This document shows positions 1 through 60,591 of a stretch of 64,000 nt of DNA, one piece after another (the first letter of the stretch is position 1; every line of letters begins with the position of its first letter). Under the pieces are notes generated by a model. It had not been told where the DNA came from and made no database searches. It saw only the letters and a program-made list of their open reading frames with translations. The stretch is from assembly GCA_000165345.1 (NCBI GenBank), contig CM000432.1:256001-320000 (forward strand), given 5' to 3'. Position numbers and translations under genes: made by a program.

Positions 1-1890
1 ATTTGAAATAATATTTGGGGTCTTTAAAGGTAGAACTTTAAGCTTTTTGCTAATATTATTGAGTTCATTATCACAATGAGTATCTGTCTGGATACTATTA
101 TTAACATCACTTTTCAAATCATTTCCAACATTATTTAATTGACTTTTATTATTATTATTTAAACTCAAATCTCTTGTAATAGTATTATTTAGTTCATCCT
201 CATTTCTAGCTCTTTTGTTAGAAGAACTTGTTGATTGTTGCGAAGAAATAAAGTTTGAAGTGGCCTCCTTAACTGAATTATGTACATTATTATTTATTGA
301 AGCTTTAATAGCTTTAGCATTAATTCTAGATTGTTCTCTAAGATGTTTGGGAAGATCTTTGGCTCTCAAATGTCTAACTTTTAAATCGATCGAATCTTTA
401 TAATTCTCGACTTCACTCCAATTCATAATAAAACCAACAAAATCTAATATTGCTCCTCTTAAATCTACAACTGGAGCAGTCCCTGAAGAATTTGAAACCC
501 CTGTAACTCCTGTTGAACTTGAACCATTATTGCTATTACTATTATTTAAAACTAAACCAATATACATACTTTGAGCAAAAATAAATCCATCTTTAGCTTC
601 ATCCTGTTCTTGAATAGCTTTTGGCCAAGGCCTAACTTGAAGACCCTTAAATGTTTCAAGTTTTCTGACCAAAAATCTTAATTTACTTTCAATCCATCCA
701 ATCCATTTATGAAAAGCTTGTTCATTATTTGATAACATTTTTACCTGTATAAAATGTTTATGCTTTTCAAAAAATAAAAATGGTGACCAAACATCATGCC
801 AAGTTGCTTTGTCATTTTCAATATCTTGAATTATACGATAAGCTCTTTGAAGTTCATCTGTTATTACTCCTAAAGTTGTATGTGTAACATTATGTGTTGA
901 ATTCATTGAAGGAAATGCTGGTGTAATTATAGGCATTACATGTGCTCTATCTTGTGGATTTAAATTAGGATTCCATACTCTGAAACCCATTAATCCTGGT
1001 GTATTCTTAGGTACTTCTTTAATTTCACAGAGTATTACAGGATTTTTCCACTGCCATGTTTTATATATATAAAAGAATCGATTAATTATTTGACTTGGAG
1101 CAGCATTTGGATATAATTGACAAATTCTTGCTGTTAGTATTGCCCATGATATTCCACCTAAATAACCAAGTACATTACTATATATTCCTCTTGCCTTACT
1201 CCAATGTTTTACAAATCTTAAAGCTGTTCTAAATGATTCTTTATTTGGTACAAGTTGTAAAATCATATCATTTACTCTACAACCATTCAATGATCTTGCT
1301 GTTTTATCATCCACATTTTTAAGTAAATCATCATCCAGGGTATTTAAATCATTTGGAATTCTTGATAGATTTAAACATGCAAATAATAAATCCATTTCCA
1401 TTCCATGATAAACCATCTTAATAATTGGTGTATAAGCATCAGGTACCGGTTGTACTTTTGTTACATTAATATCTTGTTGTAATTTTGCTAAAAAGAATGA
1501 AAAAAATGATTCTCTTGAAATATGTCTTGGTGCTATACATAAAGTATCAATATCAGATCCTGCTGCTACAACTCCTAATCTGTATGATCCAAATGTAAAT
1601 ATTCCTCCACCAGCAGAAAGAGCTTCTTCTTCATTCATACTATGTTCTAGACTTGCTTCATATATCCATTCTCTAACTAATTTATTTAAAGAAGCTAATA
1701 CATATTCTCTTTTTTTCATACCTTCTACACTTTCATATAAATTCTCTTGTCTCATTGCAATTATTAAGTTTTCTGTTAATTTATAATCTTGAGGAGTTGC
1801 CATAGCTTCTGATATTGGTGGAGTCACACCATATTGCTTTTTAGGTACCGAAGTTAAACCTTTAGATAATTCCAAATTTACTAGATCCAT
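1..1890 (-). CDS. Poly(A) polymerase (canonical nuclear PAP), 3' end truncated by window start
   Basis: Manual reverse-strand translation from ATG at complement(1888..1890) gives MDLVNLELSKGLTSVPKKQYGVTPPISEAMATPQDYKLT...GGGIFTFGSYRLGVVAAGSDIDTLCIAPRH...LNGCRVNDMILQLVPN. This aligns along its length with the eukaryotic PAP nucleotidyltransferase and central domains (FGSYRLGV / DIDxLC motifs). The frame runs open to position 1, so there is no stop in the window, which explains why it is absent from the ORF track. Confidence 0.85.
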   Translation of the reverse strand, partial: MDLVNLELSKGLTSVPKKQYGVTPPISEAMATPQDYKLTENLIIAMRQENLYESVEGMKKREYVLASLNKLVREWIYEASLEHSMNEEEALSAGGGIFTFGSYRLGVVAAGSDIDTLCIAPRHISRESFFSFFLAKLQQDINVTKVQPVPDAYTPIIKMVYHGMEMDLLFACLNLSRIPNDLNTLDDDLLKNVDDKTARSLNGCRVNDMILQLVPNKESFRTALRFVKHWSKARGIYSNVLGYLGGISWAILTARICQLYPNAAPSQIINRFFYIYKTWQWKNPVILCEIKEVPKNTPGLMGFRVWNPNLNPQDRAHVMPIITPAFPSMNSTHNVTHTTLGVITDELQRAYRIIQDIENDKATWHDVWSPFLFFEKHKHFIQVKMLSNNEQAFHKWIGWIESKLRFLVRKLETFKGLQVRPWPKAIQEQDEAKDGFIFAQSMYIGLVLNNSNSNNGSSSTGVTGVSNSSGTAPVVDLRGAILDFVGFIMNWSEVENYKDSIDLKVRHLRAKDLPKHLREQSRINAKAIKASINNNVHNSVKEATSNFISSQQSTSSSNKRARNEDELNNTITRDLSLNNNNKSQLNNVGNDLKSDVNNSIQTDTHCDNELNNISKKLKVLPLKTPNIISN

Positions 1891-2306
1891 TTTTAATCTA
1901 ATAATAATTAATTAATAGAATATTTATTATATATTGATTTCAATAATTTAGTTATTATAGTATTCTTTTAATACTTTGTAATATACTACTTTCTCACTCT
2001 TTTTCTTTCCCCTTTTAAATCGAGAATAATGCCAGAGATGTAACTAAATAATCCAATAATATCTTTCAAGAACAAATTTTCTTAGATTCTTTTTTCTTCT
2101 CTTGTAAAATTCTCTATATATAATAATTATACCAACTTAATTTCCTATTTTTAAAATATGAGCTTTATATTTAAATTTACTCAGTCACAATTTTAGTTTA
2201 TTATAATAATTAAAATGTTAAAATAATAATATATTATTGATATATGTATACACGAATACTATTTAATCAATGTATACTAATTATATAGAAATATTAATAT
2301 AATTAA

Positions 2307-2340
<34 letters not shown>

Positions 2341-2888
2341 ACACAAATAAGTATATAAATACAAATATAAATATATATATAAATACATATATGTATTTAT
2401 ATTTATGAATTCATATATATAAACATGTAAGAATCTATTTATTATTAAGCTTATTTTCTACTTGCTCTCAAAAATTCATCAATAGAGCCATCACGTTCTT
2501 TGTTTTGTTTTGATTAGAGTATATTATTATAAGACTATATAATGATTATGCACTTTTTCAAAGGGCCAGGATTAATTATTTATGATAAATTTAAACAAGA
2601 ATTCACTTTTATTTCTACTCTATATTAGGCTTTAAACAGCTCTTGAAAAGAAAAATCACAATTTTGATATGTTTAAACTCTTAATTTCTTTGAATTATAT
2701 CGATCACTCCTTCTTTTAATGTGAATTATCTTAATACTTTAATATTAGTAAGATATTCTTATTTAAATATAAAAAAATAAACTTCTCACAATTTTAAGTA
2801 ATTTATATTTCTTTTCGGTAATTGCATTAATTAATTATTCAACTTGTATATTGAATATATTGAATATGAACATTTTTGTCCAGAGTTA

Positions 2889-2910
2889 CCGCCAAATATT
2901 TGGCGCCAAA
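2889..2910. promoter_or_regulatory. E2F-like palindromic site CCGCCAAATATTTGGCGCCAAA
   Basis: GC-rich inverted repeat (GCCAAATATTTGGC core) in an otherwise AT-rich intergenic region, about 85 bp upstream of the ATG at 2992. It belongs to a recurring TTTGGCGCC / GGCGGGAA family seen throughout the window. Confidence 0.5.
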
Positions 2911-2991
2911 GTCAATAATTCTGTATTTATTTGACAATAAAAAAACAAATCAGGAAAAAAAAAAAAAAAAAGAAAAGTAAATAAGGGACAA

Positions 2992-3873
2992 ATGAGTAAG
3001 TTAAATGAGTTCTTTGAAAAGAAGAAACAAAAGTCGAAAGGTTTGGGTGACTTGAGTAGTACAAAGAAACCAATAATAGGAGGATTGAAAGGTGCAACAG
3101 GTGATCCAAATATATCATCAGTAATATCAGAAGGCAATATAGACGATTGGTCAATTAATACTGATGTAAAAGATACTTCAGACTTTTTAATTTCTAGTAA
3201 GAATTTATCGGTAGATGGTTTGAGAAAACCATCAAATTCTCATATGGTTGTTGCAGTAAAGACATCAAAACCTGATTTTGATTCTAATATATGGAAATCA
3301 AAGACAGGTGATTCTTCGGGAATGAATGGATTATCTTTATCAAAAAAGAATGCCGGAGAAGATGAGGATGGGAAGAATATGAATGATGAGGAGAAGGAAA
3401 AACCTAAAGAAACTTTAAAGTATAATGTAAGAGCAAGGTTAGCAGCAAGAGGACAAAAAGTTGATTTTTTGAATGCAAAGGATGCAATTAGTTCAATGCC
3501 TACGTTAGCAGCAGCAGTAGCCACTACAAACAAGCCAAGAGGTTCAAATTTGACTCCATTAAATCCTGTTGGTACATCAGGAAATGATTCAGATGCATTA
3601 GGTGTTGCAACTTCTACTAATACATTTACAGAGAAACAAGCTACTAGCACAGCTTCAGCAACAATAGTTGAACAAAAGGATAATTCATGTGAAAGTACTG
3701 ATATGAAAAATGAAGAAAAGCATTCAGAAAATGATGAGAAGAGTGATTTGGAAGTTATTAAGCAGTTGAGAAACTGTAATTTATTATATTTTAATAAGGA
3801 GGTTGTATTTAATTGTATTGTAGATATTGAACAAAGCAAATTAAAGTATTCAAATATTGTTAAAGATTTTTAA
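2992..3873 (+). CDS. Hypothetical Ser/Thr/Lys-rich low-complexity protein (293 aa)
   Basis: Intact ATG-to-TAA ORF. An A17 tract lies 20 bp upstream of the ATG, and a promoter E2F-like site is upstream. No recognisable domain. Confidence 0.5.
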   Translation: MSKLNEFFEKKKQKSKGLGDLSSTKKPIIGGLKGATGDPNISSVISEGNIDDWSINTDVKDTSDFLISSKNLSVDGLRKPSNSHMVVAVKTSKPDFDSNIWKSKTGDSSGMNGLSLSKKNAGEDEDGKNMNDEEKEKPKETLKYNVRARLAARGQKVDFLNAKDAISSMPTLAAAVATTNKPRGSNLTPLNPVGTSGNDSDALGVATSTNTFTEKQATSTASATIVEQKDNSCESTDMKNEEKHSENDEKSDLEVIKQLRNCNLLYFNKEVVFNCIVDIEQSKLKYSNIVKDF

Positions 3874-4136
3874 ATGAAATTTAAATTAGTTTAGATTATT
3901 TTTAATTTTATTCAAACAATTATTTATCAATTAATATTTTAGTGTATTTATTCGAATTTTTTTTTTAAATTTATTTCAATGATTTATATATCCGGTACCT
4001 TTATTTAGATCTTGTATACCGGCATTTACGTGGTAATAAAAAAAAAAAAAAATATTCTTTTTTTATTATTGGAAAAAAGTAGATTTTAAAAAAAGAGAAT
4101 TAATGCAAAGAATGATATGAGTAGATTATTACAAGA

Positions 4137-5792
4137 ATGAATCTCGGATCTAAGTACGAGAATTTGGAGATCCCAGAAAATATATATTCTCTTTTTGGAA
4201 GGAAGAAGTTAAAGACTAATAAAAATAGGCAAGTGGGGACCTTTGATACAGCAATTTTTAAGAATAAAAGAATACACCCTGTTTTGCAGAAAGACCATTT
4301 TAAGGCAGGCTTACTTTTTTATAAGAAAAAATATCATGAAGTGGTAACTCCAAGTCTACTTAAGAATGTATCCTTTAATAATAAAAAAAATTCTTCAATG
4401 ATAACTTCAATCTCAAGTCACAAAGGTTTGTTAGCAATAAGTAACACAAAAGGTTCTATTGGGATTTATAACATCAGTGAAGTTCTGAAATACAGAGACC
4501 TGAACAATGGTAAAGGCCCAGAATTAAAATTCCCATTAGGATATGTATTAACAGAAAAAGAACAAAACAGGGTAAAAAGAGGTCGAAGTTTTAAGCTGGA
4601 ACCTGTCAATTACTTAAACCCTGGAGAAAATGAAAATCATAGAGGGGTGATTTCTACTATTCATTTAAGTCCTTTTGATGGACAATTATTTATAACAAGT
4701 GGTTGGGATGGAAATATTAAAATATGGGATACTTTTGATGGAACCTGTGTATTTACTTTAAAATCTCGTAGTAAAATTAACTATTCGGTCATCAATCAAA
4801 CAAATCCAAATATTGTAGGCTCAGCTCTACAGAATGGAAATGTTGGGATTCTAGACTTGAGAATTGGAGGAGAATTCTCTCAGACATTATTTTTGGACAA
4901 AAAAACTACAAATCTCAATTTAGACAGACCAGATTCACCTGTTCTAAGCATAGCTTGGAGAACAGATTCTGAACACATTTTAGCCAGTACATCCCAGAAT
5001 GGTTTTATTCGACTTTGGGATCTCAGATTTGCACAACAACCTTTTCTATATATGAATAGTAATCTAACAGATTGGGAATTTGTACAAGAAACTAATAGTA
5101 TAACCCCTTTATTGATTAGACAACAAATGATCTTGGAGGAAGGGAAAGATATCCATACCAAACAAATTAATCAAGAAAGAGAACAAAAACAAATTTGGAA
5201 ACATCAAAATATGAAAATAGAGCTAAATGAAGACGAAAAGAAATTTCTCAAAATTGGTAAGGAAAGCAATTGTGAGGAAAAAAGTACCCCTAAAGAAAGT
5301 TCTAATGACTTCTTTAATTCTTATCAAAGCCATTTTGGAATTAGTGCACCCAAAACTATTGGCTATGCTCATGAAAGTGGAGTAGGGTTTTGTCAATTCC
5401 TTAAGAATGGTAGATACCTAATCTCCTCAGCTCATGATGGAACCATTAAACTTTGGAATTCTTTAAATGGAAAGAATTGTTATATTAATTATGATAATTT
5501 TGAATCTCAAACTTTCTGGGAGGGAGACGGACTAGTTGAACCAGGAATTGATGACCAAATTCAAAAATACTTTAAAAGGTTTTCAGTAGATTCTGGAGAT
5601 CAAGATACCTTATTTCATCCAAATGGAAATGATATAGGTATTTGGAATATTAGAACAGGTAAATGCTTAAAAAGACTTTCTGCACATATTAATGCTAAAT
5701 CTGTATCTGTAATTCACTTAAGTCACTACTCTAATTTAATGTTTTCGGGAGACCAAAGTGGATTTGTACATATATGGAATACCAGCTATTAG
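4137..5792 (+). CDS. WD40-repeat protein, CSA/ERCC8-like (DCAF family) candidate
   Basis: Continuous 551-aa ORF with WD repeats: HLSPFDGQLFITSGWDGNIKIWDT, ILASTSQNGFIRLWDLR, LISSAHDGTIKLWNSLNG, MFSGDQSGFVHIWNT. The order and spacing resemble human ERCC8 (…SGGSDGVIVLYDL…, [37 protein letters not shown]). The WD40 call is firm. The CSA assignment is tentative. Confidence 0.7.
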   Translation: MNLGSKYENLEIPENIYSLFGRKKLKTNKNRQVGTFDTAIFKNKRIHPVLQKDHFKAGLLFYKKKYHEVVTPSLLKNVSFNNKKNSSMITSISSHKGLLAISNTKGSIGIYNISEVLKYRDLNNGKGPELKFPLGYVLTEKEQNRVKRGRSFKLEPVNYLNPGENENHRGVISTIHLSPFDGQLFITSGWDGNIKIWDTFDGTCVFTLKSRSKINYSVINQTNPNIVGSALQNGNVGILDLRIGGEFSQTLFLDKKTTNLNLDRPDSPVLSIAWRTDSEHILASTSQNGFIRLWDLRFAQQPFLYMNSNLTDWEFVQETNSITPLLIRQQMILEEGKDIHTKQINQEREQKQIWKHQNMKIELNEDEKKFLKIGKESNCEEKSTPKESSNDFFNSYQSHFGISAPKTIGYAHESGVGFCQFLKNGRYLISSAHDGTIKLWNSLNGKNCYINYDNFESQTFWEGDGLVEPGIDDQIQKYFKRFSVDSGDQDTLFHPNGNDIGIWNIRTGKCLKRLSAHINAKSVSVIHLSHYSNLMFSGDQSGFVHIWNTSY

Positions 5793-5815
5793 TACTATTG
5801 TTGAGTAGTTTCTAG

Positions 5816-6691
5816 TCATATTAATCTACTTAGCTGTTGAATTGTATCATTTGGATTTATTACATTATGTCCAATAACTCTTTTATCATTATAGATTTCG
5901 TGATCATTTCCACCAGGGTATGTTTTATCCCCAAAGAAGTGGATTTCATCAAACTTATTCTCAACATGTCTTAAACAATATCTTTTGTCCCATCCCTAAA
6001 TGAAGAAGAAAGTTAAAAACAAATAAAATATCACTAAATTTGAATTCTAGAAATTTCTCGACTTACCTGTGGGAATACATCTATTGATATCTGCCCTCCA
6101 ATAGAATATTGAAGATCAAGATCTGAAAACTCTTTTGATAAATCCTGAATAAACTTTTCTCTGATTCCATTCTTTTTGTCAAGCTCAAAGAATTCTAATC
6201 TCTCATCATAGGAACAATTTCTTCCAATTGGGGAAATATTCAACATTCCTGTTCTATATTCAATAAATGTACCTCTTTTGATTGGAATATCTAGATCTGC
6301 AATGTATCTTAAACAGAAATTGACAAATCTCTTGATGTTATCTTCTCCCAAATGTTTTGAAATGCTTTCTGAACTCACTTTTACTCCTTCATCGTGAAAT
6401 ACAACTCCATTTTCACTAAATATATAGTGACTACAAGCTAGCTCTAAAGATCAATATTAAATAAATTCCATTATAGAATAAAAAAAAAGAAAAAGGAAAT
6501 AAATATACAGTAAACTTACCATTATTCTGTAATTGCTCACATATTTTACTATAATCTGACCCACTAACTACTCCTATCTTAACTTTGCTCTTCGCATTTT
6601 TAAGAGTCATTACCATGTCCTCCATTATTGGTTTTCGTGGTAAAGTGAGGGTCCCATCTAAATCAAACAAAAATAACTTTTTTGAATCCAT
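5816..6691 (-). CDS. Phosphomannomutase (PMM), 3 exons: complement(join(5816..5995,6067..6443,6520..6691))
   Basis: Exon 1 encodes [20 protein letters not shown]...[20 protein letters not shown] (HAD DxDGT motif). Exon 2 encodes ...[30 protein letters not shown]...[70 protein letters not shown]. Exon 3 encodes [59 protein letters not shown]. The whole is collinear with human PMM2. Introns are 71 and 76 nt with GTAAGT donors and tttag acceptors, and phases are consistent. Confidence 0.8.
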
Positions 6692-6824
6692 TTGATTATT
6701 TTTTGTGTGTAAACTCAATTTCTATTGAACATTTATCTTAAAAAATAATAATAATAATAAATATTAAGCTAAATTCAAGCTTATTTATTTTTGCAATTAA
6801 AAATAGTTACCATTTATTTTGATG

Positions 6825-6838
6825 CTTGGCGCCAAAAC
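6825..6838. promoter_or_regulatory. E2F-like site CTTGGCGCCAAAAC in the divergent PMM / MCM7 promoter
   Basis: GGCGCC palindrome flanked by T/A runs, about 225 bp upstream of the MCM7 ATG. MCM genes are classic E2F targets in other eukaryotes. The adjacent CATGCCGGTAT (6838-6850) is a reverse-orientation copy of the ATACCGG motif. Confidence 0.55.
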
Positions 6839-7064
6839 ATGCCGGTATGTAGGCTATTAAGCAAAAAAAGGCCGACCCCACACTACGATTAATATTATTA
6901 AGTAATGAGGATTTGAAATTAAGATAAAGTTGGTGAAAAATTATTAAAAGAAATTGCATTCAAGAGGTAATAAAATCAAAAAAAAGCAACGCTTAGAGAT
7001 CAGTCAGAACAATTGAATTACCCTTAGAAAGCGTATTTTAAAGTCCAAGTTGGAAAGTACTAAC

Positions 7065-9638
7065 ATGGCAATAGGAGTGGATAATGCTCACGAAAAAGTG
7101 AGAGCATACAATGATCACATTAAAGATATTCAGAATTTTTTGGAGAATTTTGAAGAATATAATGAGAATGAAAATTCAGGAGAAGATGTAGTAATGTCAA
7201 ATGCTAGGGAAGAAACGGAAAAGGAAGGATCTATTTGGAAACATAAAAAGTATATGAAATCCTTACAGAGTATATCTAATAGGGAAAAAAATGTTTTATA
7301 TATTGAAGTTGACGATATATTGAGTTTTGGAAAATACGAAAATAAAGTAACAGAGTACAATAATTTGGTTCATTCAATTTTGTCAAATACTAAGAGATAT
7401 GTACAATTGATTTATATAGCAGCAGATAATTGTTTACCGGTACCTACTCGTACAAATATGATTGATTTTAAATTAGAAGAGATGAATAATACTAAAAGAT
7501 CTGAATCAATGAAGACATGTAATGTTCCAGCTTATTTGAGATCCAATTTTGAAGTTTACATTAAAGCAAGTAAGAGAATGCCTATTACGCCTTTAAGAGA
7601 AGTTAGAGCAGAGTATGTTGGGGGTTATGTACAGGTAAATTGTATAGTTACCCGTGTTTCTAATGTGAAGCCAAGAATACAAGTAGTTAATTATACATGT
7701 GAAGTTTGTGGTTCTTCAATTTGGCAATCTGTAGAAGGTACTAATTATATGCCTTTGTCTGATTGTGAATCAAGCCAATGCAAGAATAACAAAAGAACTG
7801 GAAATTTGAAGTGTAATATTAAAGAAAGTAAATTTACTAAGTTCCAGGAGATTCGAATCCAGGAGCCTGCTGATCAAGTACCGACAGGTAATGTACCTAG
7901 AACAATGAAAGTTATAGCAATGGGAGAGAATACAAGAAAATTACTACCTGGTATGTATGTTACTATTTCAGGAGTATTTCTTCCAGTAGTAAAGGAAGGA
8001 TTCCAAGCATTCAGATCAGGTTTAACGGCAGAAACGTATTTTGAAGTTCATAATGTTCATAGTTATATTTCTAACAAAGAGGTTTCCTTGACAGATTATG
8101 AGAAGAAGCTGGTAAAGCAGATGGAAGCTGATGAGGAAAAGAAGAATAGAGAGGAAGCCCTTAACAGTTCAGGAGGTGGAGCCTATGAAGTTCTTCATTC
8201 ACAATTTTATGATAAACTAGCAAATAGTATTGCTCCTGAAATTTTCGGAATGCTGGATGTAAAGAAAGGTCTCCTTTTGCAGTTAATTGGAGGGGTTACA
8301 AATCAAATGAATGATGGGATGAAAATTAGAGGAAATATCCACATACTACTAATGGGAGATCCTGGAGTTGCAAAGAGCCAGCTCTTGAATCAAATCACAA
8401 AAATTGCTCCAAGATCAATTTATGCTACAGGAAAAGGTAGTAGTGGAGTAGGTTTAACAGCTTCCGTAGTTAGAGATCAGAACACCTCAGAAGTAACTCT
8501 GGAGGGAGGAGCCTTAGTTCTGGCAGATAACGGGATCTGTTGTATTGATGAGTTTGATAAAATGGATGAATCCGATAGAACAGCAATTCATGAAGTTATG
8601 GAGCAGCAAACAGTTTCTATTGCAAAAGCTGGAATTACTACAACTTTGAATGCAAGATCATCAGTCTTGGCAGCAGCAAACCCTGTTTCAGGAAGATACG
8701 ATCCCAGGAAATCCCCTGTGGCCAATATGAACCTCCCAGATTCTCTTCTTTCTCGTTTTGATCTTCAATTCTTACTTTTAGATATTCCTGATAAGGAGAA
8801 GGATCTTAAACTTGCTCGTCATGTACTTTACGTACATAAGAATGAAAAGGCTCCAAGCGGTGATTTTGAGCTTGATAGATCCTTATCTTCTATTCAGAGG
8901 CCTGGAATGGGAGTAAATCAAACAAGGAGCTCAGCAAAAAAAGTAAGAAGACGAAGAAACAATGATGATAGAGAAGAAGATGCTGAGAGTGAGAATCAAG
9001 ATAAATCCAAATCTGATCAAGAACAGAGGGTTTTTTCCACAGTATTTATGAGATACTTTATTGAAAAGGCTCAAACTTATACCCCATTGGTTCCAAAAGA
9101 ACTAGTTTCTGAGATTGTTGAACATTATGTTGAGCTCAGAAGAAGGGAAAAGATTGAACAGACTAGGGAAGATTGGAGAAAGACTTATACAACTCCAAGA
9201 ACTTTGTTAGGTATTTTGAGACTCTCTCAAGCCCTAGCTAGGCTCAGATTCAGTAATATAGTAGAAAGAGCTGATTTTGAGGAGGCAACCAGATTAATGA
9301 TTGAAAGCAAGAAGAGTGTTACAAAGCCAGGAAATACGAGTGGATTTTCAAATCCTGGAGCAAAGAATAAGAAGCACGATTTTAGAGACCAAATTATTGA
9401 GATTATTAAGGATTTACATAATAGACAAGCTGAGAGAACTACAAGAGGAGGTGAAGATGACGAATCAATGACTGATGGAATGATTGAGATTTCAATTTCT
9501 GAGATTGAAACAAGAATAGCTCATAGAGGGCTGCTTAAGCAGCAACTTGAGTTAGTTATTGATGAATACATAGAATTGGGAGTATTGTCCAAAAGTAAAG
9601 ATGGACAATTTATTTCATTTATCACAGATTTTTCGTAG
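7065..9638 (+). CDS. MCM7: DNA replication licensing factor MCM7
   Basis: Zinc finger CEVCGSS...CESSQC. Walker A GDPGVAKSQLL. Arginine finger region SRFDL. MCM7-specific stretches VRDQNTSEVTLEGGALVLADNGICCIDEFDKMDESDRTAIHEVMEQQTVSIAKAGITTTLNARSSVLAAANPVSGRYDPRKS, TPRTLLGILRLSQALARLRF and C-terminal ...DEYIELGVL align best with human MCM7 rather than MCM2-6. The ORF-track start at 7050 is TTG. The first ATG is at 7065 (MAIGVDN...). Confidence 0.9.
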   Translation: MAIGVDNAHEKVRAYNDHIKDIQNFLENFEEYNENENSGEDVVMSNAREETEKEGSIWKHKKYMKSLQSISNREKNVLYIEVDDILSFGKYENKVTEYNNLVHSILSNTKRYVQLIYIAADNCLPVPTRTNMIDFKLEEMNNTKRSESMKTCNVPAYLRSNFEVYIKASKRMPITPLREVRAEYVGGYVQVNCIVTRVSNVKPRIQVVNYTCEVCGSSIWQSVEGTNYMPLSDCESSQCKNNKRTGNLKCNIKESKFTKFQEIRIQEPADQVPTGNVPRTMKVIAMGENTRKLLPGMYVTISGVFLPVVKEGFQAFRSGLTAETYFEVHNVHSYISNKEVSLTDYEKKLVKQMEADEEKKNREEALNSSGGGAYEVLHSQFYDKLANSIAPEIFGMLDVKKGLLLQLIGGVTNQMNDGMKIRGNIHILLMGDPGVAKSQLLNQITKIAPRSIYATGKGSSGVGLTASVVRDQNTSEVTLEGGALVLADNGICCIDEFDKMDESDRTAIHEVMEQQTVSIAKAGITTTLNARSSVLAAANPVSGRYDPRKSPVANMNLPDSLLSRFDLQFLLLDIPDKEKDLKLARHVLYVHKNEKAPSGDFELDRSLSSIQRPGMGVNQTRSSAKKVRRRRNNDDREEDAESENQDKSKSDQEQRVFSTVFMRYFIEKAQTYTPLVPKELVSEIVEHYVELRRREKIEQTREDWRKTYTTPRTLLGILRLSQALARLRFSNIVERADFEEATRLMIESKKSVTKPGNTSGFSNPGAKNKKHDFRDQIIEIIKDLHNRQAERTTRGGEDDESMTDGMIEISISEIETRIAHRGLLKQQLELVIDEYIELGVLSKSKDGQFISFITDFS

Positions 9639-9692
9639 ATTAAAGAATAACAGAAGCTGAGATAACTAGAATAGGGAGTAAAAGTATTAGAA

Positions 9693-10892
9693 TTAGTAGA
9701 TTCGTGTATAGCATCTAAAATTATCTTGTACATTATTATTATGTTGGTTATAACTTTTATCAATTGTATCACCTAAGAATGAGTTCTTACTACTCCAAAA
9801 TCCGTATATTAAAGCTATGGACGGAATTGTCTCGGCAAAAAACGTATATAATGCAGTCCATACAGTGTTTAAAAGGATTTCTGGGTTAGAATTAACAATA
9901 CCAAATCCTCTAAGTAGGTAGTATAGACTAGAGATTAGTAATGAAATTGGGCATACTAGAGTAAGAACTTGAATCTTGAACCTGAGTTTATTAATAGAGG
10001 AACTATAGGCTTTATTATAAATAAATAATCCTGAGAGTATTGAACTATTAGAATTATTTGACGATGAAGCAGTATTAACAGTATTTGCTGTATTTGCAGA
10101 TGAATCCTGATTAAATTGTATAATAGATACCTGACCACTGTTCAACATTCCATATTGAAGGCAATTTGTACCTCTAACTTGATTAAAACCAGAATTAATA
10201 ATATTAGAGTTTGTATTCCATGTAAAATTGGCATTTTTCGAAATTAAATCTTTTTGCAAGTCCTTATGCATGGCTTGGCGCCTATTGATTTGTGTAAATA
10301 AAGATGATCCATAATGTACCCAAAAATAGGAAAATAATAAATGTAAAAGACCCATTAGAATATATAGAACATTAAAAAGTACGGGGAACTTTTGAGTAAT
10401 TAAAAGAGTAATGACTATTATTCCTCCACCAGTTAAGTATAATGCAAAATTGAGTAATGTGATGATTGTAAATTCAAAGCTTCTGGAATGTGTGAAAATT
10501 GAGCTCCATAATGCTATTACTATAGAGTAGGATGCAAGAAATACAATATTGATTAAATAATCAAACATTCTTAATATATTAAGTTTATTAATCAGTCCAT
10601 TTTCAATAAATTTGGGTAAAATATTTATTGCCAAATAAACAATAATATAAAGTAATCTGAAAATAATTCCAATAGAGAATGTACTTAGAAAATAAGGCCT
10701 AATTTTTATTCCATTGGTTTCAAATACATTTTCTGTTGTATTTGACTCTAATGCTGATAAAGATTGAAATACAGAAAGTGCACCAAGCACAAAGTAGATT
10801 AAAACCAACAAGGTATTTAAAAGCAATCCAAAAAAAGATGAGTGCCCGAATAATGAATCATCGAGTTGTGATTTGATAGGAGAGAAGTCCAT
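9693..10892 (-). CDS. Multi-pass (about 7 TM) membrane protein, family unassigned
   Basis: 399-aa ORF with real ATG. Several hydrophobic 20-residue segments (LLLNTLLVLIYFVLGALSVF, FSIGIIFRLLYIIVYLAINIL, IVFLASYSIVIALWSSIF, GGGIIVITLLITQKF, LYILMGLLHLLFSYFWV) are followed by an Asn/Ser-rich tail. It is convergent with MCM7, with stops 54 bp apart. Confidence 0.6.
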   Translation of the reverse strand: MDFSPIKSQLDDSLFGHSSFFGLLLNTLLVLIYFVLGALSVFQSLSALESNTTENVFETNGIKIRPYFLSTFSIGIIFRLLYIIVYLAINILPKFIENGLINKLNILRMFDYLINIVFLASYSIVIALWSSIFTHSRSFEFTIITLLNFALYLTGGGIIVITLLITQKFPVLFNVLYILMGLLHLLFSYFWVHYGSSLFTQINRRQAMHKDLQKDLISKNANFTWNTNSNIINSGFNQVRGTNCLQYGMLNSGQVSIIQFNQDSSANTANTVNTASSSNNSNSSILSGLFIYNKAYSSSINKLRFKIQVLTLVCPISLLISSLYYLLRGFGIVNSNPEILLNTVWTALYTFFAETIPSIALIYGFWSSKNSFLGDTIDKSYNQHNNNVQDNFRCYTRIY

Positions 10893-10916
10893 TTTTTTGT
10901 TATAATATTAGTGGAT

Positions 10917-10930
10917 GCATGTGCAATGAA
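10917..10930. promoter_or_regulatory. GATGCATGTGCAATG (TGCATG-type) motif just upstream of the membrane-protein ATG
   Basis: GCATG/TGCA palindromic core, recurring in several promoters in this window (see 40082, 27341, 31615, 43967). Confidence 0.3.
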
Positions 10931-11342
10931 ATCTTTATTTCCTGTTCATTCCAATCTTTAGTATATTTAAAATGGCTTAATAATTGTACATAAAATTTGA
11001 AAACTCATTCGTTAAATATTAAAGAGTAATAAGATATTTCTCTTAATATATTTAAATTTGAATTGATTTATCCAATTATTTTATTTTAAATAGTTTTGTA
11101 TCATTAATTTAAAATTGTGTGTGCAAATAAATAAGTGGTTTATACAAATAATATACCCATTAATTTCATTCCATTAAATATTTTTCTTCATTCAAAAAGT
11201 GGAATAATTGGAAAATAATTACTTAATAAAAGTAATTAAATCCCTAAAATTATTGGGTTGCACAAATACTTTCAATCATTATTTCATTCCACTTAATGTT
11301 TATATTAACATGAAAATATTAGAAAATAACTCGACTAAAATA

Positions 11343-11366
11343 TGGCGCCAAAGCGCTTTGGCGCCA
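11343..11366. promoter_or_regulatory. Perfect 24-bp palindrome TGGCGCCAAAGCGCTTTGGCGCCA (double E2F-like site)
   Basis: Its reverse complement is identical to itself. Two TTTGGCGCCA half-sites around a central AGCGCT. Sits in the divergent promoter between the membrane-protein gene (start 10892) and the kinase gene (start 11836). The 70-aa ORF 11208..11420 in the track simply reads through it. Confidence 0.6.
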
Positions 11367-11835
11367 AAACGAGCGGTATCTAAAAAAGAAAATGCATGCA
11401 ATATTAAAGAAAAAAAATAATGTATGGCAAAATTTGAGGAAACAAAAATTAAATAGAATTAATAAGTATTAAAGAAGTAATAGTTGTTTTAGATATTTAA
11501 TTATTATTTATTATTAAATCAAAATTTTTATAATTGAAGAGGAAATAAGTATAAAATATTTGACTAATAATGAATAAGATTTGAAAGAAAAGGGAAATAT
11601 AGATCAAGTTTCTAATAAATCTGGCCTTATTTATTTCAGATTTTTACATTCTTTGTTATAAAATAATTCTTAATTAGTATTACATATTACTATTGCAAAA
11701 TTAATTAATTAATAATTAATTAAAGTTATAAATATTAGTAGAAACGACTTCTGGAATATATTAAAAGTAAGGGAGTGGTTTTCTTTTTTCTTTTTTTTTT
11801 GAAATAACTAAATTATTATTGGAATATTAGAAGTT

Positions 11836-12789
11836 ATGGAACTAAGTGAAACAAAATTGGAAGATATAAATCACAATTCTGAGTTTAATAAAGATAATTA
11901 TTATAATGAAAAAAATAATTTGAATCATAATTTGGAGGTAAACAATTTAGATATTCAAGAAGTAAATAATAGAAGAAGTTCTACAAGATGTAGCATTAAA
12001 ATGAGAACATCTTTGGTAGATGACCTTCATCAATTAATGCCAAGAGTAGTAACATTAGAAAGAAATGATCAAGGTCAAATTAAATATAATTTAAAAGTTC
12101 CTGCTGGAGAATTAATAAACTCAAGTCAATTTGAATTTGTTAATTTAATTAGTTCAGGAGGATTTGGTGTTGTTAATCTTTGTAAAAGTAATAATCTGGG
12201 AAATTTACCCAATGGAAGAGAAATTGCAGTAAAATTATTTACAAGAGGAGGTAAAGAAGGTGGGAGTAATCAACTTTCAGATGAAAGACTAAAATCAATA
12301 GAATCTGAGTTAAATTATGTTCGTATGTTTAAGCATCCAAATATTATAGAATATTATGGTATTTTAAATCCATCAACTGGTCAAATAGGATTTGCAATGG
12401 AATATTTGGATGGTGGAACAGTTTTTGAAGTTTTATATTCTAAAATTAATATTATTCCTTTAGAAATTAGGAAGATGTGGTGTGTACAATTAGTTAAAGC
12501 TGTGGCTTATTTACATGAAGGATGCGCTCCTTATAGATTTATACATAGAGATATTAAAACAATTAATATGTTAATCAATAGAAAGGATCTTAGCATTCGA
12601 TTATGCGACTTTGGTAATGTTAGAGAGAGAACTTTTTCGTATTACAGACTAAATTATATGGGGACAGTAAGATATCTCCCCAGATCAGCAAAGTGGTTCA
12701 TTATTATGAAAAACAGAGTATGGCAATGGTCTGGAGATGAGATTTTGAAGTGGGATCCCTTATCAAAATTTAATGATGATAATCTTTAA
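11836..12789 (+). CDS. Ser/Thr protein kinase (STE/MAP3K-like catalytic domain), C-lobe apparently interrupted
   Basis: Gly-loop GGFGVVNLCK, VAIK-type lysine REIAVKLF, HRDIKTINML catalytic loop, DFG. After subdomain VIII/IX (GTVRYLP...VWQWSGDEIL) the frame stops at 12789. However 12791-12907 encodes, in the +1 frame, ...LIFSTCLKKCVKMSTTDPNMRPNSQHY* (subdomain XI-like DPxxRP). Another frame gives PPEIPSFF across a T6 run at 12826-12833. See the finding on this region. Confidence 0.7.
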   Translation: MELSETKLEDINHNSEFNKDNYYNEKNNLNHNLEVNNLDIQEVNNRRSSTRCSIKMRTSLVDDLHQLMPRVVTLERNDQGQIKYNLKVPAGELINSSQFEFVNLISSGGFGVVNLCKSNNLGNLPNGREIAVKLFTRGGKEGGSNQLSDERLKSIESELNYVRMFKHPNIIEYYGILNPSTGQIGFAMEYLDGGTVFEVLYSKINIIPLEIRKMWCVQLVKAVAYLHEGCAPYRFIHRDIKTINMLINRKDLSIRLCDFGNVRERTFSYYRLNYMGTVRYLPRSAKWFIIMKNRVWQWSGDEILKWDPLSKFNDDNL

Positions 12790-13036
12790 TTAGTTGATAG
12801 AGAAGGAGTCCTCCAGAAATACCCTCATTTTTTCCACGTGTTTAAAAAAGTGTGTCAAAATGTCTACAACTGACCCTAATATGAGACCAAATAGTCAGCA
12901 TTACTAAGAGATGTTATTACACTTGACATGAAGTATTAGAAATCTAAAGCTTGGTAGGCTTGATAAGTACCCAAAAGTCTGATAAAATGTTGCTAATATT
13001 TGAACCAAGTATTTGATAATAGCACAAGTAAGCAAG

Positions 13037-13498
13037 TCATCTCTTTTTCGTTCCTCGCATACTTATACTGATACTAATACTACTGTTACTACAACAACAA
13101 CTACCACTACAACAACAACTACAACAACAACTACTACTACCACTACAGCAACTACTTCTACCACTACTACCACTGTTACCATTGCTATCACTGCTACCGC
13201 TGCTACTGCTACCACTGCTACTGCTACCACTGCTACTGCTACCATTGCTACTGCTACCATTGCTACTGCTACCATTGCTACTGCTACCATTGCTACTGCT
13301 ACCATTGCTACTGCTACCATTGCTACTGCTACCACTGCTACTGCTACCACTGCTGCCACTATCATATTTGCCTCTCGCTCTTCCCATTCTCCTCCTCATC
13401 TTCCTCCTTTTCATCCTCCTTTTCATCCTCCCCCTCCCCTCTTTTGCTCCCCTTTCCTCTCTTCCAGGATTGTTAATAACTAAAATCATTTCAAGCAT
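13037..13498 (-). CDS. Candidate small basic/Ser-rich repeat protein (153 aa); coding strand uncertain
   Basis: The minus strand has a genuine ATG (complement 13496..13498), an Arg/Lys-rich N-terminus (RMKRRMKRRKMRRRMGRARGK), then (SSSNG)n and Cys/Ser runs, and it fits the convergent gene layout. The plus-strand alternative (poly-Thr, Pro-rich tail) has no ATG (the track start is TTG) and an upstream in-frame stop. Confidence 0.3.
   Translation of the reverse strand: MLEMILVINNPGREERGAKEGRGRMKRRMKRRKMRRRMGRARGKYDSGSSGSSSSGSSSNGSSSNGSSSNGSSSNGSSSNGSSSNGSSSSGSSSSGSSSSGSSDSNGNSGSSGRSSCCSGSSSCCCSCCCSGSCCCSNSSISISISMRGTKKR
13196..13360. repeat. 15-bp tandem repeat ACC(A/C)(T/C)TGCTACTGCT x about 11, with 6 perfect consecutive copies at 13241-13330
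   Basis: Read directly from the sequence. Embedded in a broader ACT/ACC/ACA/GCT triplet-repeat tract (about 13040-13370). Confidence 0.9.
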
Positions 13499-14168: not shown

Positions 14169-22476
<8,308 letters not shown>

Positions 22477-26742: not shown

Positions 26743-27579
26743 TTATTTAATTTTTTTAAAAATAATTCCTCTTTTAATTTATAACGAAAAAAAAAAAAAT
26801 TAGAAGTAAATGTTAATTCTAATAAAAAACCTCTTTGACCCTTAATTTTAATTCAATGCTTTATACTTAATTAATTTATTATCATTAATTTCACTATTGA
26901 CATATAATTTTTTTCAAAGTATTAGAACAAAATATTTATTTTATTTTATTTTATTTTTTTCAATTGATCAACTCTTTCTGTAATTAATTAATCAAAATAT
27001 TTTTTTTTTTAATAAAATAGTTGTAAAAAAAAGATATTTATATTTATTACACTGATCCCTTCTATATTAACGCATTTACTTCACATATTAAATATATTTC
27101 TTTGTCTTATTATTATTCTAATTTTTTTATTCCTATCTATTTAAAATTAATTAAAAAAAAAAATCTTTAGTGGTCAAAAAATGACGTGGCAATATTAAAT
27201 ATTTTTTTAAAAATTAATTTAAATAATTTTATGTGGACGAAGATTCTCCAATAAAATATTTTTTTTAATTCAAGATGGATTATATGGACATATTAATTAA
27301 CAAGTTGCAATAGTTCCTATACCGGTGTTTGACAATTTACATGCAGATTTGCATGCACACCACAACAAAAAAATTGACCTAAAAAAATATCTAAAATATA
27401 AAAGTTAAAGAGGAAAAAGGAAAGCTTTCCAATTTTTTCTTCAAGAAGAAGGAATTAATTTGAACTAATTTTGGTAAGTAAAAATTTTTTTTAAAAATTA
27501 ATATTACTTTATTTTTTAATTCGCAAATGTATATAATCATGTGCAATTTATATCAATTAAAAAAAAAAAAATTAAACTT

Positions 27580-31479: not shown

Positions 31480-32102
31480 TTTCATTTAAGTTAAAAACTA
31501 TTTTATTTTATTTTATTTTTTAATCATTAATCCATTATAATTAACATAAATTTATAATTTTTTCTTGTCCACATGAAAAAATAAATATGAATTCCGGACA
31601 CGTAATTTAATTACTTGCATTTGCATGTTGCATGCAAATTTTGGAAAAAATGGTCCACATAAAAAATATAGCAAATAAATAATTCGTTTTTTAAAGAACA
31701 AAATACAAATTAAAACTCTATTAAGAATTTTTTTAATATCTATTTTTTTTTTATTATTTTTTTTTTGAGTTAATATTAAATCAATACTATTTAAGCCAAG
31801 TAAAACTATTAATGTGAAATTATTGGGTAAAAGGTAATAATAAAAAAAAATTGATACTATTTAAACAAATTAAGTGCTGAAGAAATACAACTATACATAA
31901 AATAATTTAATATTAATAGTGATAAAAATAGTAAATACTGTCAAAATATTTCAATTGAAAGTATAATGCACATTTATTTATAAATTATTAATTAATATAT
32001 GTATATATGCATATATAAATATATTAACATATATATATCTATATATATATATATTAATATGTATACAACAGGAAATAATTTAATTTGGAAGACTAGTTAA
32101 AA

Positions 32103-44412: not shown

Positions 44413-45342
44413 TCATTTGGGACAATTGGGAAAGATGAGTATATTAATAAGTTGAATCGTTTTTAAAAATGCTAAAGTTTCTTTTGGAATAATAGAATAT
44501 CTTGGAATAATGCAAATCAATTTTTTATCACTTGCATATTCAATACAATATCCAGAAGAAAGTTTATTATCTGAATCAATAAAAAATAATGATGTAATTT
44601 TTATTTCATTGGAATATTGAATAATCACTGGATTCAAAGTTAAGTTTTTATCAATTTCATCACTTATCTCAATATCATTATTCAAGCTAATATAATCATT
44701 AAATTTGGATATTGAATCAATTTTAGTAACATCTGGAGAATTTCTTGGATCAAGTATGTTAAGTTGAACACAACCAACTTTTGTTTTTGATTTTAAATCA
44801 TCTTTTAAAGAATAATTAATTATGTAACTATACCAGTCATTAAATTTGTTTAATGCAGAAGATGTAAAATATATTGGTACTCTAATTTTTGGCTCATAAA
44901 ATACTATTCCATCGTTTCCCACAGGTCTTTCATATTTTTGAACTTCTCTTGTTTCATCTATTCCATTAAAAGATGATTCATCCGAACCCATACAAAAAAT
45001 GGCATCCAATCTATTAATATTTGCAGGTATTGCATATTCTAGCATTGATATTCTAAATGTTGAGCCAATTTCAAAAAGAAATGTATCATGGCGTTCACTT
45101 TCAGAACTATTTAAATTACTAACTGGATTCTTAATTAAAATAGAAAATGGATTACGTACATTTTTATTCTTCATCTTAATTGACTCTTGACATATACCAC
45201 AAAATGGGTCGTTTCCTTTATTAACATTATCTATATTTTTAAATACATGCTCAAGATTTGGCGTACCTTGTTCGGTACCAGAACCTAAGAAAAGAATAAA
45301 GCTACTCATATCTCTTGTTGGCTTATGAGAATGTGCATGCAT
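44413..45342 (-). CDS. MBL-fold-like pseudoenzyme (paralog 2 of 42153..43217), metal-binding histidines lost
   Basis: MSSFILFLGSGTEQGTPN parallels paralog 1 KLPCGILFVGTGVSSSVP. FLFEIGSTFRISML...LDAIFCMGSDESSFNG aligns with ILIDLGKSFREAAI...IDSVILTHFHNDAVAG, so the HxHxDH position reads MGSDES. Two candidate ATGs (45342 or 45309). Confidence 0.6.
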   Translation of the reverse strand: MHAHSHKPTRDMSSFILFLGSGTEQGTPNLEHVFKNIDNVNKGNDPFCGICQESIKMKNKNVRNPFSILIKNPVSNLNSSESERHDTFLFEIGSTFRISMLEYAIPANINRLDAIFCMGSDESSFNGIDETREVQKYERPVGNDGIVFYEPKIRVPIYFTSSALNKFNDWYSYIINYSLKDDLKSKTKVGCVQLNILDPRNSPDVTKIDSISKFNDYISLNNDIEISDEIDKNLTLNPVIIQYSNEIKITSLFFIDSDNKLSSGYCIEYASDKKLICIIPRYSIIPKETLAFLKTIQLINILIFPNCPK

Positions 45343-57822: not shown

Positions 57823-60591
57823 TTATTTATATAATGCATGGAAATTATTTGGGAATACAATTTTTTGTTGAACAGCATCAATAGTTATAGGAGTTGGTAC
57901 TGGAGCAACATATTGAAGGTTGTTGTTTGTATTAGTATTTGGTACTATATTGATATTACCATTTAAAAGTGTAGTGTTAGTTGTGTTTTGAGTTGCATTC
58001 ATATTAAAAAAACTGCTATTGCTTCTACTATTAAGTAAGTTTGCCGGGTAGTACTGGTTGTTATTATTATTACTGGTATTATTCAATAGAGGTGTTGTGT
58101 TACTCCTTATTAAATTCGTATCAGTTGTTTTTAAATTATTAGCTTCTATATAGTTTGTAGGTTGCAAGTCTAAAAGTTTGACTTCAGGAGAATAAATTAA
58201 ATATGAATCTGTTTCATTGCTAGCCACATTCTTATTGATTGTGTTTATGTTCTTTTCTGTATTGCTACTCGCTTGAAATTCATTTATTGAATTAATTGTT
58301 TGAATTGTTGCTTTATAAGCTCTTACAATTGGGGCATTAGTTCCGTAATTGGGCTGATTATTTGATTCAATTATATTAGAATGTTCTATTTTTTGATCAT
58401 TTAAATATTTATCCACTGTACTGCTTTTGTTGCTAATGATAAAGGTTGAATTATTCACTAAATTTGTTGTTTTAACTTTAGGTACAATAGTTTCTAAATC
58501 ACTATTCATTTTTCTTAGATTTCTTTTGCTAAGAATATCAGCAGATATAATTGACTCATTATTCATGTATGAATCATCAAAAATACCCCCTTTTAAATTA
58601 CTCATTGAAATCAAATTTGTTTTTGAGTTGGTTCTATAAAAACTATTCGAGTTTGAATTATTATAATCATCAACTAATCTTTCTTTTGATTTTGTCCTTT
58701 TTTTTGATAGGCTATTAACTGTTGGTTTAGTAAAGTTAGATAATTGATCATTAACTTTGATATGCTCCTTTGAACTGGTTTTTGAATTATTAAAATCTGT
58801 ACCTTTGCCAGATTTAACTAAGTTCTTTCCATTTATTCTTTCGTTTTCTTGAACATTCTTCTGATCAGAAATTGTTTTATTTACTTTTTTTTCTGTTGTT
58901 TTATAATTTTGTAGTGATAAATTTGGTCTAGTATTACTCTTCTTAATCTTTTCTAATTCAGAAACATTCTTACTGATATTAGATTCATTTTTATGACAAT
59001 CATCTTTGTTATTTACGCATTTATCGTCTTCAATTTCTTCAGTAATTTTTTTAATATCATTGGTTGGTTTAGCAGTTTTCGTTATATCTTTATGGTCATC
59101 CTCGCTTTTATTATCGCTTTGTTTTTGAATAATAGCTAGTTCGTTATCATTTATCCGTTCATCAAAACTAGTTTCATATTGAGTTTTACTTTCATCCTTT
59201 TCAATCAATTCACATTCCGCATCTACTGGAGTAATAACCAAATGATGGTTATTAATTTGCTCCACTGGGTCTCGTGGAGTTGATATTGCGCTTTTAATAT
59301 GCTTACATTGAGAAAGGATATTCAATTTTGAAGGAATAGATGACCTCAACTCATGGAATCTTTTCTCTATTCCTGAAATAACTGAATTTTTCGGAACTTC
59401 TGTCTGATCGTTGTTGATTCTAAGTAATTCGGCACCACCTTTTAATATATTATTATTAATATTATAATCATGGCGCCTGATGTGTGCATGCATATTTAAA
59501 TAATTATTTTGATTATCGATTTCTTTATTAATAAATAATACTCGATTATCTTGTGATAATTCTTTAATATTTAATAGATTGGTATTGATTTGATCGTCTG
59601 TTAAAGCATTGTTATTTGGAAGTTCGCCACTATTCATTGAATCAAAAGTGTTATCTTCTTGATGAATAAGATTACCATATTTGCTTTTTAACTTCATTCT
59701 AAGATTAATAATTGAGTTATCTAATTGATCTTGTAATGAAAATAAAGTAAAGCTTAGTTTGTTGATTTCTTGATCTTTCTTATTAATTAAAAAAAAATCT
59801 CTATTAATTTGTTCCTTTAATTGTAAATTCTCCATATGTATGAGATTTACTTTCTTTCTTAATACAGATTCTAAATAGAAAGAATCTTCATCTTTTTTAT
59901 TAAGTGTATCAACATCTTCGATATGTCTTTGTAACAAATCATTCATTCTAAGAGTAAAGAAATGAACTCTATTTCTATTAAGCATATCAGTAATCATTTC
60001 TTTTTCCAATAAGAATTCATTATTTAAACTAACTCCTTTCTTTAATATCCTTAAATCCAATAATAACAATTTCAAGTAATCGTTACTTTTAAATATTCCA
60101 GAATTATTATCAGAACTAATCAATTGATTATTCAATAAACTTGAATCCAATAATTTCTTATCATTTTGCCTTATTCTCTCGATAAGAATATGTTTGTTTT
60201 CTTCATTACAATTCAATTCATTAAATAAATGTGTTAATTCACTATAATTTCTTTTAATTTCTAGCAAACTTTCATAGTTTTCCTTCTGAGTTTCATTTTT
60301 TGTTAGCTCTTCATTCAAAATTTTCAAAGTCTCTTTTTCGTTGTTTATATCATATTTCTCTAAAAGAGCTATAAAATTACTATTGTTAAATAATTCATAT
60401 ATTTTGCCATTAATTTTATCCTCCAACTGAATATATTTATCTGTCAGATTCATTCTACTTTCATTTTTATCATTAGCTTTCATTTCTTCCATTTTTGTGA
60501 TTTCTGAATCTTCTTGATTCTTTTTTTTAATCTTTGGTGTATCATATTCAATGATATCTTCTTCGTGAACTATTAATTTCTCTGTATTCAT
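57823..60591 (-). CDS. Hypothetical coiled-coil / low-complexity protein (922 aa)
   Basis: Real ATG. The N-terminal 350 aa are heptad-rich (KE/LN repeats), followed by an Asn/Ser/Thr-rich tail. No domain recognised. Confidence 0.6.
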   Translation of the reverse strand: MNTEKLIVHEEDIIEYDTPKIKKKNQEDSEITKMEEMKANDKNESRMNLTDKYIQLEDKINGKIYELFNNSNFIALLEKYDINNEKETLKILNEELTKNETQKENYESLLEIKRNYSELTHLFNELNCNEENKHILIERIRQNDKKLLDSSLLNNQLISSDNNSGIFKSNDYLKLLLLDLRILKKGVSLNNEFLLEKEMITDMLNRNRVHFFTLRMNDLLQRHIEDVDTLNKKDEDSFYLESVLRKKVNLIHMENLQLKEQINRDFFLINKKDQEINKLSFTLFSLQDQLDNSIINLRMKLKSKYGNLIHQEDNTFDSMNSGELPNNNALTDDQINTNLLNIKELSQDNRVLFINKEIDNQNNYLNMHAHIRRHDYNINNNILKGGAELLRINNDQTEVPKNSVISGIEKRFHELRSSIPSKLNILSQCKHIKSAISTPRDPVEQINNHHLVITPVDAECELIEKDESKTQYETSFDERINDNELAIIQKQSDNKSEDDHKDITKTAKPTNDIKKITEEIEDDKCVNNKDDCHKNESNISKNVSELEKIKKSNTRPNLSLQNYKTTEKKVNKTISDQKNVQENERINGKNLVKSGKGTDFNNSKTSSKEHIKVNDQLSNFTKPTVNSLSKKRTKSKERLVDDYNNSNSNSFYRTNSKTNLISMSNLKGGIFDDSYMNNESIISADILSKRNLRKMNSDLETIVPKVKTTNLVNNSTFIISNKSSTVDKYLNDQKIEHSNIIESNNQPNYGTNAPIVRAYKATIQTINSINEFQASSNTEKNINTINKNVASNETDSYLIYSPEVKLLDLQPTNYIEANNLKTTDTNLIRSNTTPLLNNTSNNNNNQYYPANLLNSRSNSSFFNMNATQNTTNTTLLNGNINIVPNTNTNNNLQYVAPVPTPITIDAVQQKIVFPNNFHALYK

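Follow-up and report, generated by a model that had tools for sequence, protein, structure and literature searches.

Is the protein kinase gene near the left end of this DNA really broken in its last third, or was it broken by the sequencing? The window, by which we mean the whole stretch of 64,000 nucleotides analysed here (contig CM000432.1 of assembly GCA_000165345.1), is AT-rich, with a G+C content of 18-36%. Judged by its sequence, it is part of chromosome 4 in the reference that was assembled for Cryptosporidium parvum Iowa II in 2004, in the Sanger era. One of its ORFs encodes the hallmarks of a protein kinase, namely a glycine-rich loop (SSGGFGV), IAVKLF, HRDIKTINML and DFG. The initial annotation, made from the letters of the window, had correctly seen this frame end at 12789 with pieces of the C-terminal lobe spread over three frames, which is an accurate description of the window sequence. 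As possible causes it offered a pseudogene, a sequencing or assembly indel, and an unrecognized micro-intron structure.

Identity and true extent of the gene

The translation of the window ORF equals XP_625700.1 / EAK87640.1, entered in RefSeq and GenBank as 'Ser/Thr protein kinase [C. parvum Iowa II]', at every residue of its 317 aa. The C. parvum kinome paper (Artz et al. 2011, PMC3227725) identifies the gene as cgd4_990 in its supplementary alignment. The truncated kinase sequence is known solely as the 2004 Iowa II model. The contig index lists the intact 392-aa protein in 41 blocks and contains no gene with the 317-aa truncated product. Proteins of 392 aa from the newer assemblies of C. 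parvum and from C. hominis, C. meleagridis and C. tyzzeri share the cluster of the top protein match, together with a version of 395 aa from chipmunk genotype I.

When 33 missing bases are restored to the window and 1 extra base is removed, a 1179-bp CDS is obtained whose protein ends in KLGRLDKYPKV (Table 1). That tail, followed by two stop codons, can be read directly in the window in frame 2. It is also in frame 2 that we found the downstream segment reported by the initial annotation, ...LIFSTCLKKCVKMSTTDPNMRPNSQHY followed by a stop. We conclude that cgd4_990 is an intact, intronless protein kinase of 392 aa with a complete C-lobe, conserved throughout the genus.

Table 1 Coordinates of the features discussed, numbered from the first base of the window
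Feature	Position	Strand	Remarks
Truncated ORF, cgd4_990 model	11836..12789	+	317 aa; ATG at 11836, TAA at 12787-12789; residues 1-272 correct, rest frame-garbled
True kinase gene, in window coordinates	11836..12981	+	Intronless 1179-bp CDS, 392 aa; TGA at 12979-12981
Low-quality sequence patch	12652..12946		42 differences relative to each of the other C. parvum assemblies
T6 run	12828..12833	+	Not an error site; CCCTCATTTTTTCCA identical in the window and the intact gene
Tandem-repeat array	13088..13354		Found by TRF; 9- to 18-bp ACT/ACA/ACC units, then 12 copies of 15-bp ACTGCTACCATTGCT
Split large gene, first half	14169-19757		Window ORF, 1862 aa
Split large gene, second half	19729-22476		Window ORF, 915 aa

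A dense patch of differences confined to one assembly

The locus was compared with three chromosome-level C. parvum assemblies, GCA_048859185.1 (L003), GCA_031892065.1 (L004) and GCA_035232765.1 (L005). The last of these is CpBGF, the telomere-to-telomere (T2T) assembly of C. parvum IOWA II (PMC12179316), and it is the only one of the three documented as IOWA II. Four more C. parvum assemblies (L006-L009), independent and built from short reads, came from separate public read sets (DRR845829, DRR729225, DRR729234 and SRR5007564), and two assemblies of C. hominis (L001 and L002) were also used. All seven of the other C. parvum assemblies carry the gene uninterrupted and translate to the 392-aa protein. 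Over 360 bp spanning the patch, the remaining six are all identical to GCA_031892065.1, and none of the 42 changes in the patch was found in any of the seven.

Aligned base by base to GCA_031892065.1, the window shows 0 differences in the 10.8 kb upstream (1836-12651) and 42 in the 295 bp from 12652 to 12946, of which 33 are missing bases, 8 are substitutions and 1 is an extra base. With L011 and L017, two more loci of GCA_031892065.1, the comparison reaches window position 60482, and the downstream non-repeat sequence up to that point (~47 kb) contains only 4 more differences, all of them single-base. For the patch, the counts per interval are equal against each of L003-L009. Thus 42 of 46 differences fall within 295 of 58,206 bases (binomial P = 6e-92). 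At 14% difference from its own species, the patch is far more diverged from C. parvum than is the sister species C. hominis, which differs from C. parvum across this segment at 8 of 360 positions and by no indel.

Within the patch, 32 separate indel events contribute 34 of the 42 differences. T accounts for 20 of the 33 dropped bases, and in the intact sequence 22 of the 33 have a neighbour of the same base. The onset of errors is abrupt, at 12652, which is codon 273, directly after ...ERTFSYYRL. Their density is highest on the left: 12650-12749 contains 26 errors and 12750-12949 contains 16. The true sequence ...RLDNNGGSVRYISPESVRVGSFINDKTDVWSIGCCMIEIFGGGIPY appears in the window as ...RLNYMGTVRYLPRSAKWFIIMKNRVWQWSGDEILKWDPL, a reading in which the frame is carried on by chance across many frame-shifting deletions. 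The activation segment and subdomains VIII-IX, truly DNNGGSVRYISPESVRVGSFINDKTDVWSIGCCMIEIFGGGIPY, are misread as NYMGTVRYLPRSAKWFIIMKNRVWQWSGDEILKWDPL.

These alignments change the picture of where the damage lies. The domain had been described as intact through subdomain IX, on the strength of VWQWSGDEIL, and the split as beginning at 12690 around a T6 homopolymer. Alignment to the intact gene places the start upstream, at 12652, and subdomains VIII-IX are already garbled. The events, 32 indels and 8 substitutions, are distributed over the whole patch, and the intact genes carry the T6 run in the same form, for which reason a single homopolymer indel at that run was rejected. The frame reading PPEIPSFF over the T-run does exist (frame 0, PPEIPSFFP, with six T), although the run does not occupy 12826-12833 as first given (Table 1). 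Two further statements were borne out: that the coding sequence downstream is too short for a kinase C-lobe, and that no GT...AG combination restores one. Both follow from the window being a net 32 bases short of the continuous CDS, with bases missing and no segment inserted.

Origin of the patch

We conclude that the frame split is almost certainly an artefact of a low-quality patch in the 2004 assembly, which was built from Sanger reads (PMC8744675). The changes are absent from independent assemblies of the species and of the strain lineage, including IOWA II T2T. They form a tight cluster, they are mostly single-base indels, and the flank upstream is free of errors. Poor base calls at 12652-12946, mostly dropped single bases, entered the consensus and shift the reading frame about 30 times, so that the last 120 codons of cgd4_990 are scattered over three frames and the model stops early, at 317 aa. 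The initial annotation was therefore right to list a sequencing or assembly indel as a cause, and misjudged its scale: the patch extends over 295 bp, with 33 bases lost, 1 gained and 8 substituted, and is not one indel.

From the error pattern we infer that the consensus here may come from the poor end of one read that ran leftward and bridged a coverage hole beside a repeat, because errors set in abruptly, are most frequent at the left edge and become sparser rightward, toward a hard-to-assemble tandem repeat. The array begins ~140 bp downstream of the patch and is probably the reason for poor read coverage beside it. What small doubt we retain about the artefact concerns only the origin of the bad bases and the remote chance that the 2004 stock held a genuine aberrant allele.

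The array itself varies in length. Based on BLAST offsets, it is 396 bp longer than in the window in GCA_031892065.1 and CpBGF and 66 bp shorter in GCA_048859185.1, a spread of up to 462 bp among C. parvum assemblies. ORFs cross it on both strands (13013-13483 on the plus strand, 13037-13498 on the minus strand). The putative peptide of this trinucleotide-based array would be Thr/Ala-rich from the plus strand and Ser/Gly-rich from the minus strand. In the newer annotations, a minus-strand ORF is placed at the array with very different lengths: 74, 100, 148 and 298 aa in L001, L002, L003 and L004, respectively.

The intact kinase domain and its conservation

The intact protein has a full catalytic core. 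Each element of the PF00069 core (Gly-rich loop, VAIK Lys, HRD, DFG, APE-type motif, DxWxxG and subdomain XI Arg) is present, in the form of SSGGFGV, IAVKLF, HRDIKTIN, DFG, SPE, DVWSIG(C) and DPNMRP with the subdomain XI Arg. The Pfam Pkinase profile matches the 392-aa protein over positions 2-259 of 263 (E = 2.3e-42), and matches the truncated 317-aa model over positions 2-164 of 263 only. Protein searches place the family in Cryptosporidium only, where ~12 species have orthologues of 376-474 aa, and the best matches outside the genus are ~30% identical with E around 1e-10. The closest solved structures are TKL-group MAP3Ks. The kinase domain of TAK1/MAP3K7 matches with E = 6e-26 and is aligned through DPNMRP in subdomain XI. 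The kinome paper lists cgd4_990 as an 'other protein kinase' of clade OPK-3 without orthologues beyond the genus (PMC3227725). Family placement (TKL, STE7-like or orphan) is unsettled, and the name of the kinase differs between sources. The cgd4_990 sequence of that paper is identical to the protein described here in the N-lobe and catalytic loop, and the intact protein covers the full Pkinase profile; the study is older than the corrected assemblies.

The initial annotation had suggested that an alignment with orthologous kinases would show whether the C-lobe is conserved. It is: 13 orthologues align through the C-lobe without a gap. In the comparison of C. parvum with C. hominis, codons 273-392 have a dN/dS of 0.13 and codons 1-272 one of 0.08. 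The C-lobe is under purifying selection. Together, the dN/dS of 0.13 and the gap-free C-lobe argue that cgd4_990 is a functional, constrained kinase.

This bears directly on the possibility of a genuine pseudogene or decaying allele, in which the 3' third of the kinase in the 2004 clone had gained dozens of small deletions. Multiple frameshifts and a premature stop in the window, and the adoption of the truncated model into RefSeq, are what such decay would look like. However, disabling mutations should recur in independent sequencing, and they are seen in none of the seven C. parvum assemblies, which are intact and mutually identical and include IOWA II T2T. Relaxed selection should bring dN/dS near 1, and the estimate for the C-lobe codons is far from that value. 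Nor does decay account for 42 changes in 295 bp beside 10.8 kb with zero change, or for a patch more diverged than the C. hominis orthologue. We know of no within-strain mutational process that gives such clustering. We regard the pseudogene reading as effectively refuted and grant it only a slim chance of being correct.

A more restricted form of the same idea is that the 2004 Iowa II stock held a real subpopulation allele of cgd4_990, a genus-specific kinase naturally inactivated by heavy deletion of the C-lobe, and that this allele was later lost from the propagated IOWA lines or was never in them. We consider this scarcely credible, and even less likely than the damaged clone discussed below.

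Cloning damage, introns and recoding

The bad bases could also have arisen before sequencing, if a plasmid insert was damaged in E. coli and then read accurately. The patch does adjoin an unstable tandem repeat whose length varies between assemblies, and the 2004 project took its Sanger reads from cloned libraries. Errors of replication or recombination in a clone, however, usually yield one larger deletion. Dozens of evenly scattered single-base losses, T-biased and graded in density over 295 bp, are instead typical of a decaying read. The chance that the damage arose in a clone is slimmer still than that of a pseudogene.

There is a practically negligible probability that the transcript is brought back into frame by unrecognised small introns, by programmed frameshifting or by RNA editing. 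Parts of the C-lobe can be recognised in each of the three frames, and C. parvum intron numbers were initially underestimated (PMC6742220), yet every other assembly has the gene as a continuous genomic ORF that lines up with orthologues across the genus without gaps. Introns would add sequence, whereas the window is short of bases: a search for extra GT...AG-bounded sequence, as a spliceosomal (micro-)intron would supply, found net 32 bases fewer and no inserted segment. Recoding would require ~30 separate events. The micro-intron structure raised by the initial annotation is accordingly abandoned.

An alternative genetic code was likewise considered and rejected. In ciliates, TAA and TAG encode Gln. 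The organism here is Cryptosporidium, the frame also has TGA, and the DNA comparison explains everything.

Other differences and neighbouring genes

Other positions of the window also differ from newer assemblies. A T5 run at 19708-19712 reads T4 in L003, L004 and L005, and the extra T, probably one more single-base mistake in the old assembly, splits a large gene (~2764-2768 aa in L003 and L004) into the two window ORFs listed in Table 1. CpBGF splits the same large gene in a different way, through indels of its own. At 44426-44428 the window has GGG and L017 has GG; the extra G cuts a minus-strand gene, 367 aa in L014-L017, to a 309-aa ORF at 44413-45342. There are isolated substitutions at 17594 (C in the window, A in L003, L004 and L005) and at 31558 (T in the window, A in L011 and in the CpBGF locus L012), each of which may be either a base-call error or a true difference between stocks. 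L012 also carries 18 substitutions against the window in ~200 bp (its positions 4909-5104, window 27011-27206), which are absent from L011 of GCA_031892065.1. This cluster may stem from a local error in polishing, or may be a real variant of CpBGF.

Two neighbours of the kinase are identical to the newer assemblies. The gene at 7050-9638 encodes, according to newer annotations, an MCM7-type replicative helicase subunit of 857 aa with MCM_N, MCM_OB, MCM and WHD_MCM7 domains. The gene at 9693-10892 encodes a 399-aa minus-strand protein with no Pfam match in any assembly fetched.

Relation to known defects of the reference and consequences for cgd4_990

Low-quality regions that split ORFs have already been described as a class of defect in the C. 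parvum Iowa II reference of 2004 (Isaza et al. 2015, PMC4637869; Baptista et al. 2022, PMC8744675; Baptista & Kissinger 2019, PMC6742220). The present case shares with them the genome, the symptom (an ORF split by indels that are absent in later assemblies) and the setting beside a hard-to-assemble repeat. It differs in degree, as 42 errors in 295 bp far exceeds the isolated single-base indels elsewhere in the window. A literature search did not find cgd4_990 named as an example of such defects, only the 2011 kinome paper (PMC3227725) was found to mention the gene, and no publication pointing out this correction came up. The corrected 392-aa model is already public, for example in CpBGF T2T.

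The locus also bears a superficial likeness to unitary pseudogenes of protein kinases, with its shifted frame, its early stop and the motifs that can still be recognised in other frames. In contrast to such pseudogenes, the disabling changes here are missing from every independent sequencing of the species and are gathered in one short patch with perfect flanks, at a locus that is under purifying selection.

The frame split has no biological significance. Its consequences are practical: users of the 2004 Iowa II sequence, or of the XP_625700.1 / cgd4_990 model, get a wrong activation segment and C-lobe, which affects kinome classification, the design of structural or drug-target constructs, and the design of primers or guides. 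More generally, remnants of motifs in three frames need to be checked against independent assemblies before a pseudogene is called. For cgd4_990, the 392-aa model from the newer assemblies is the one to use.
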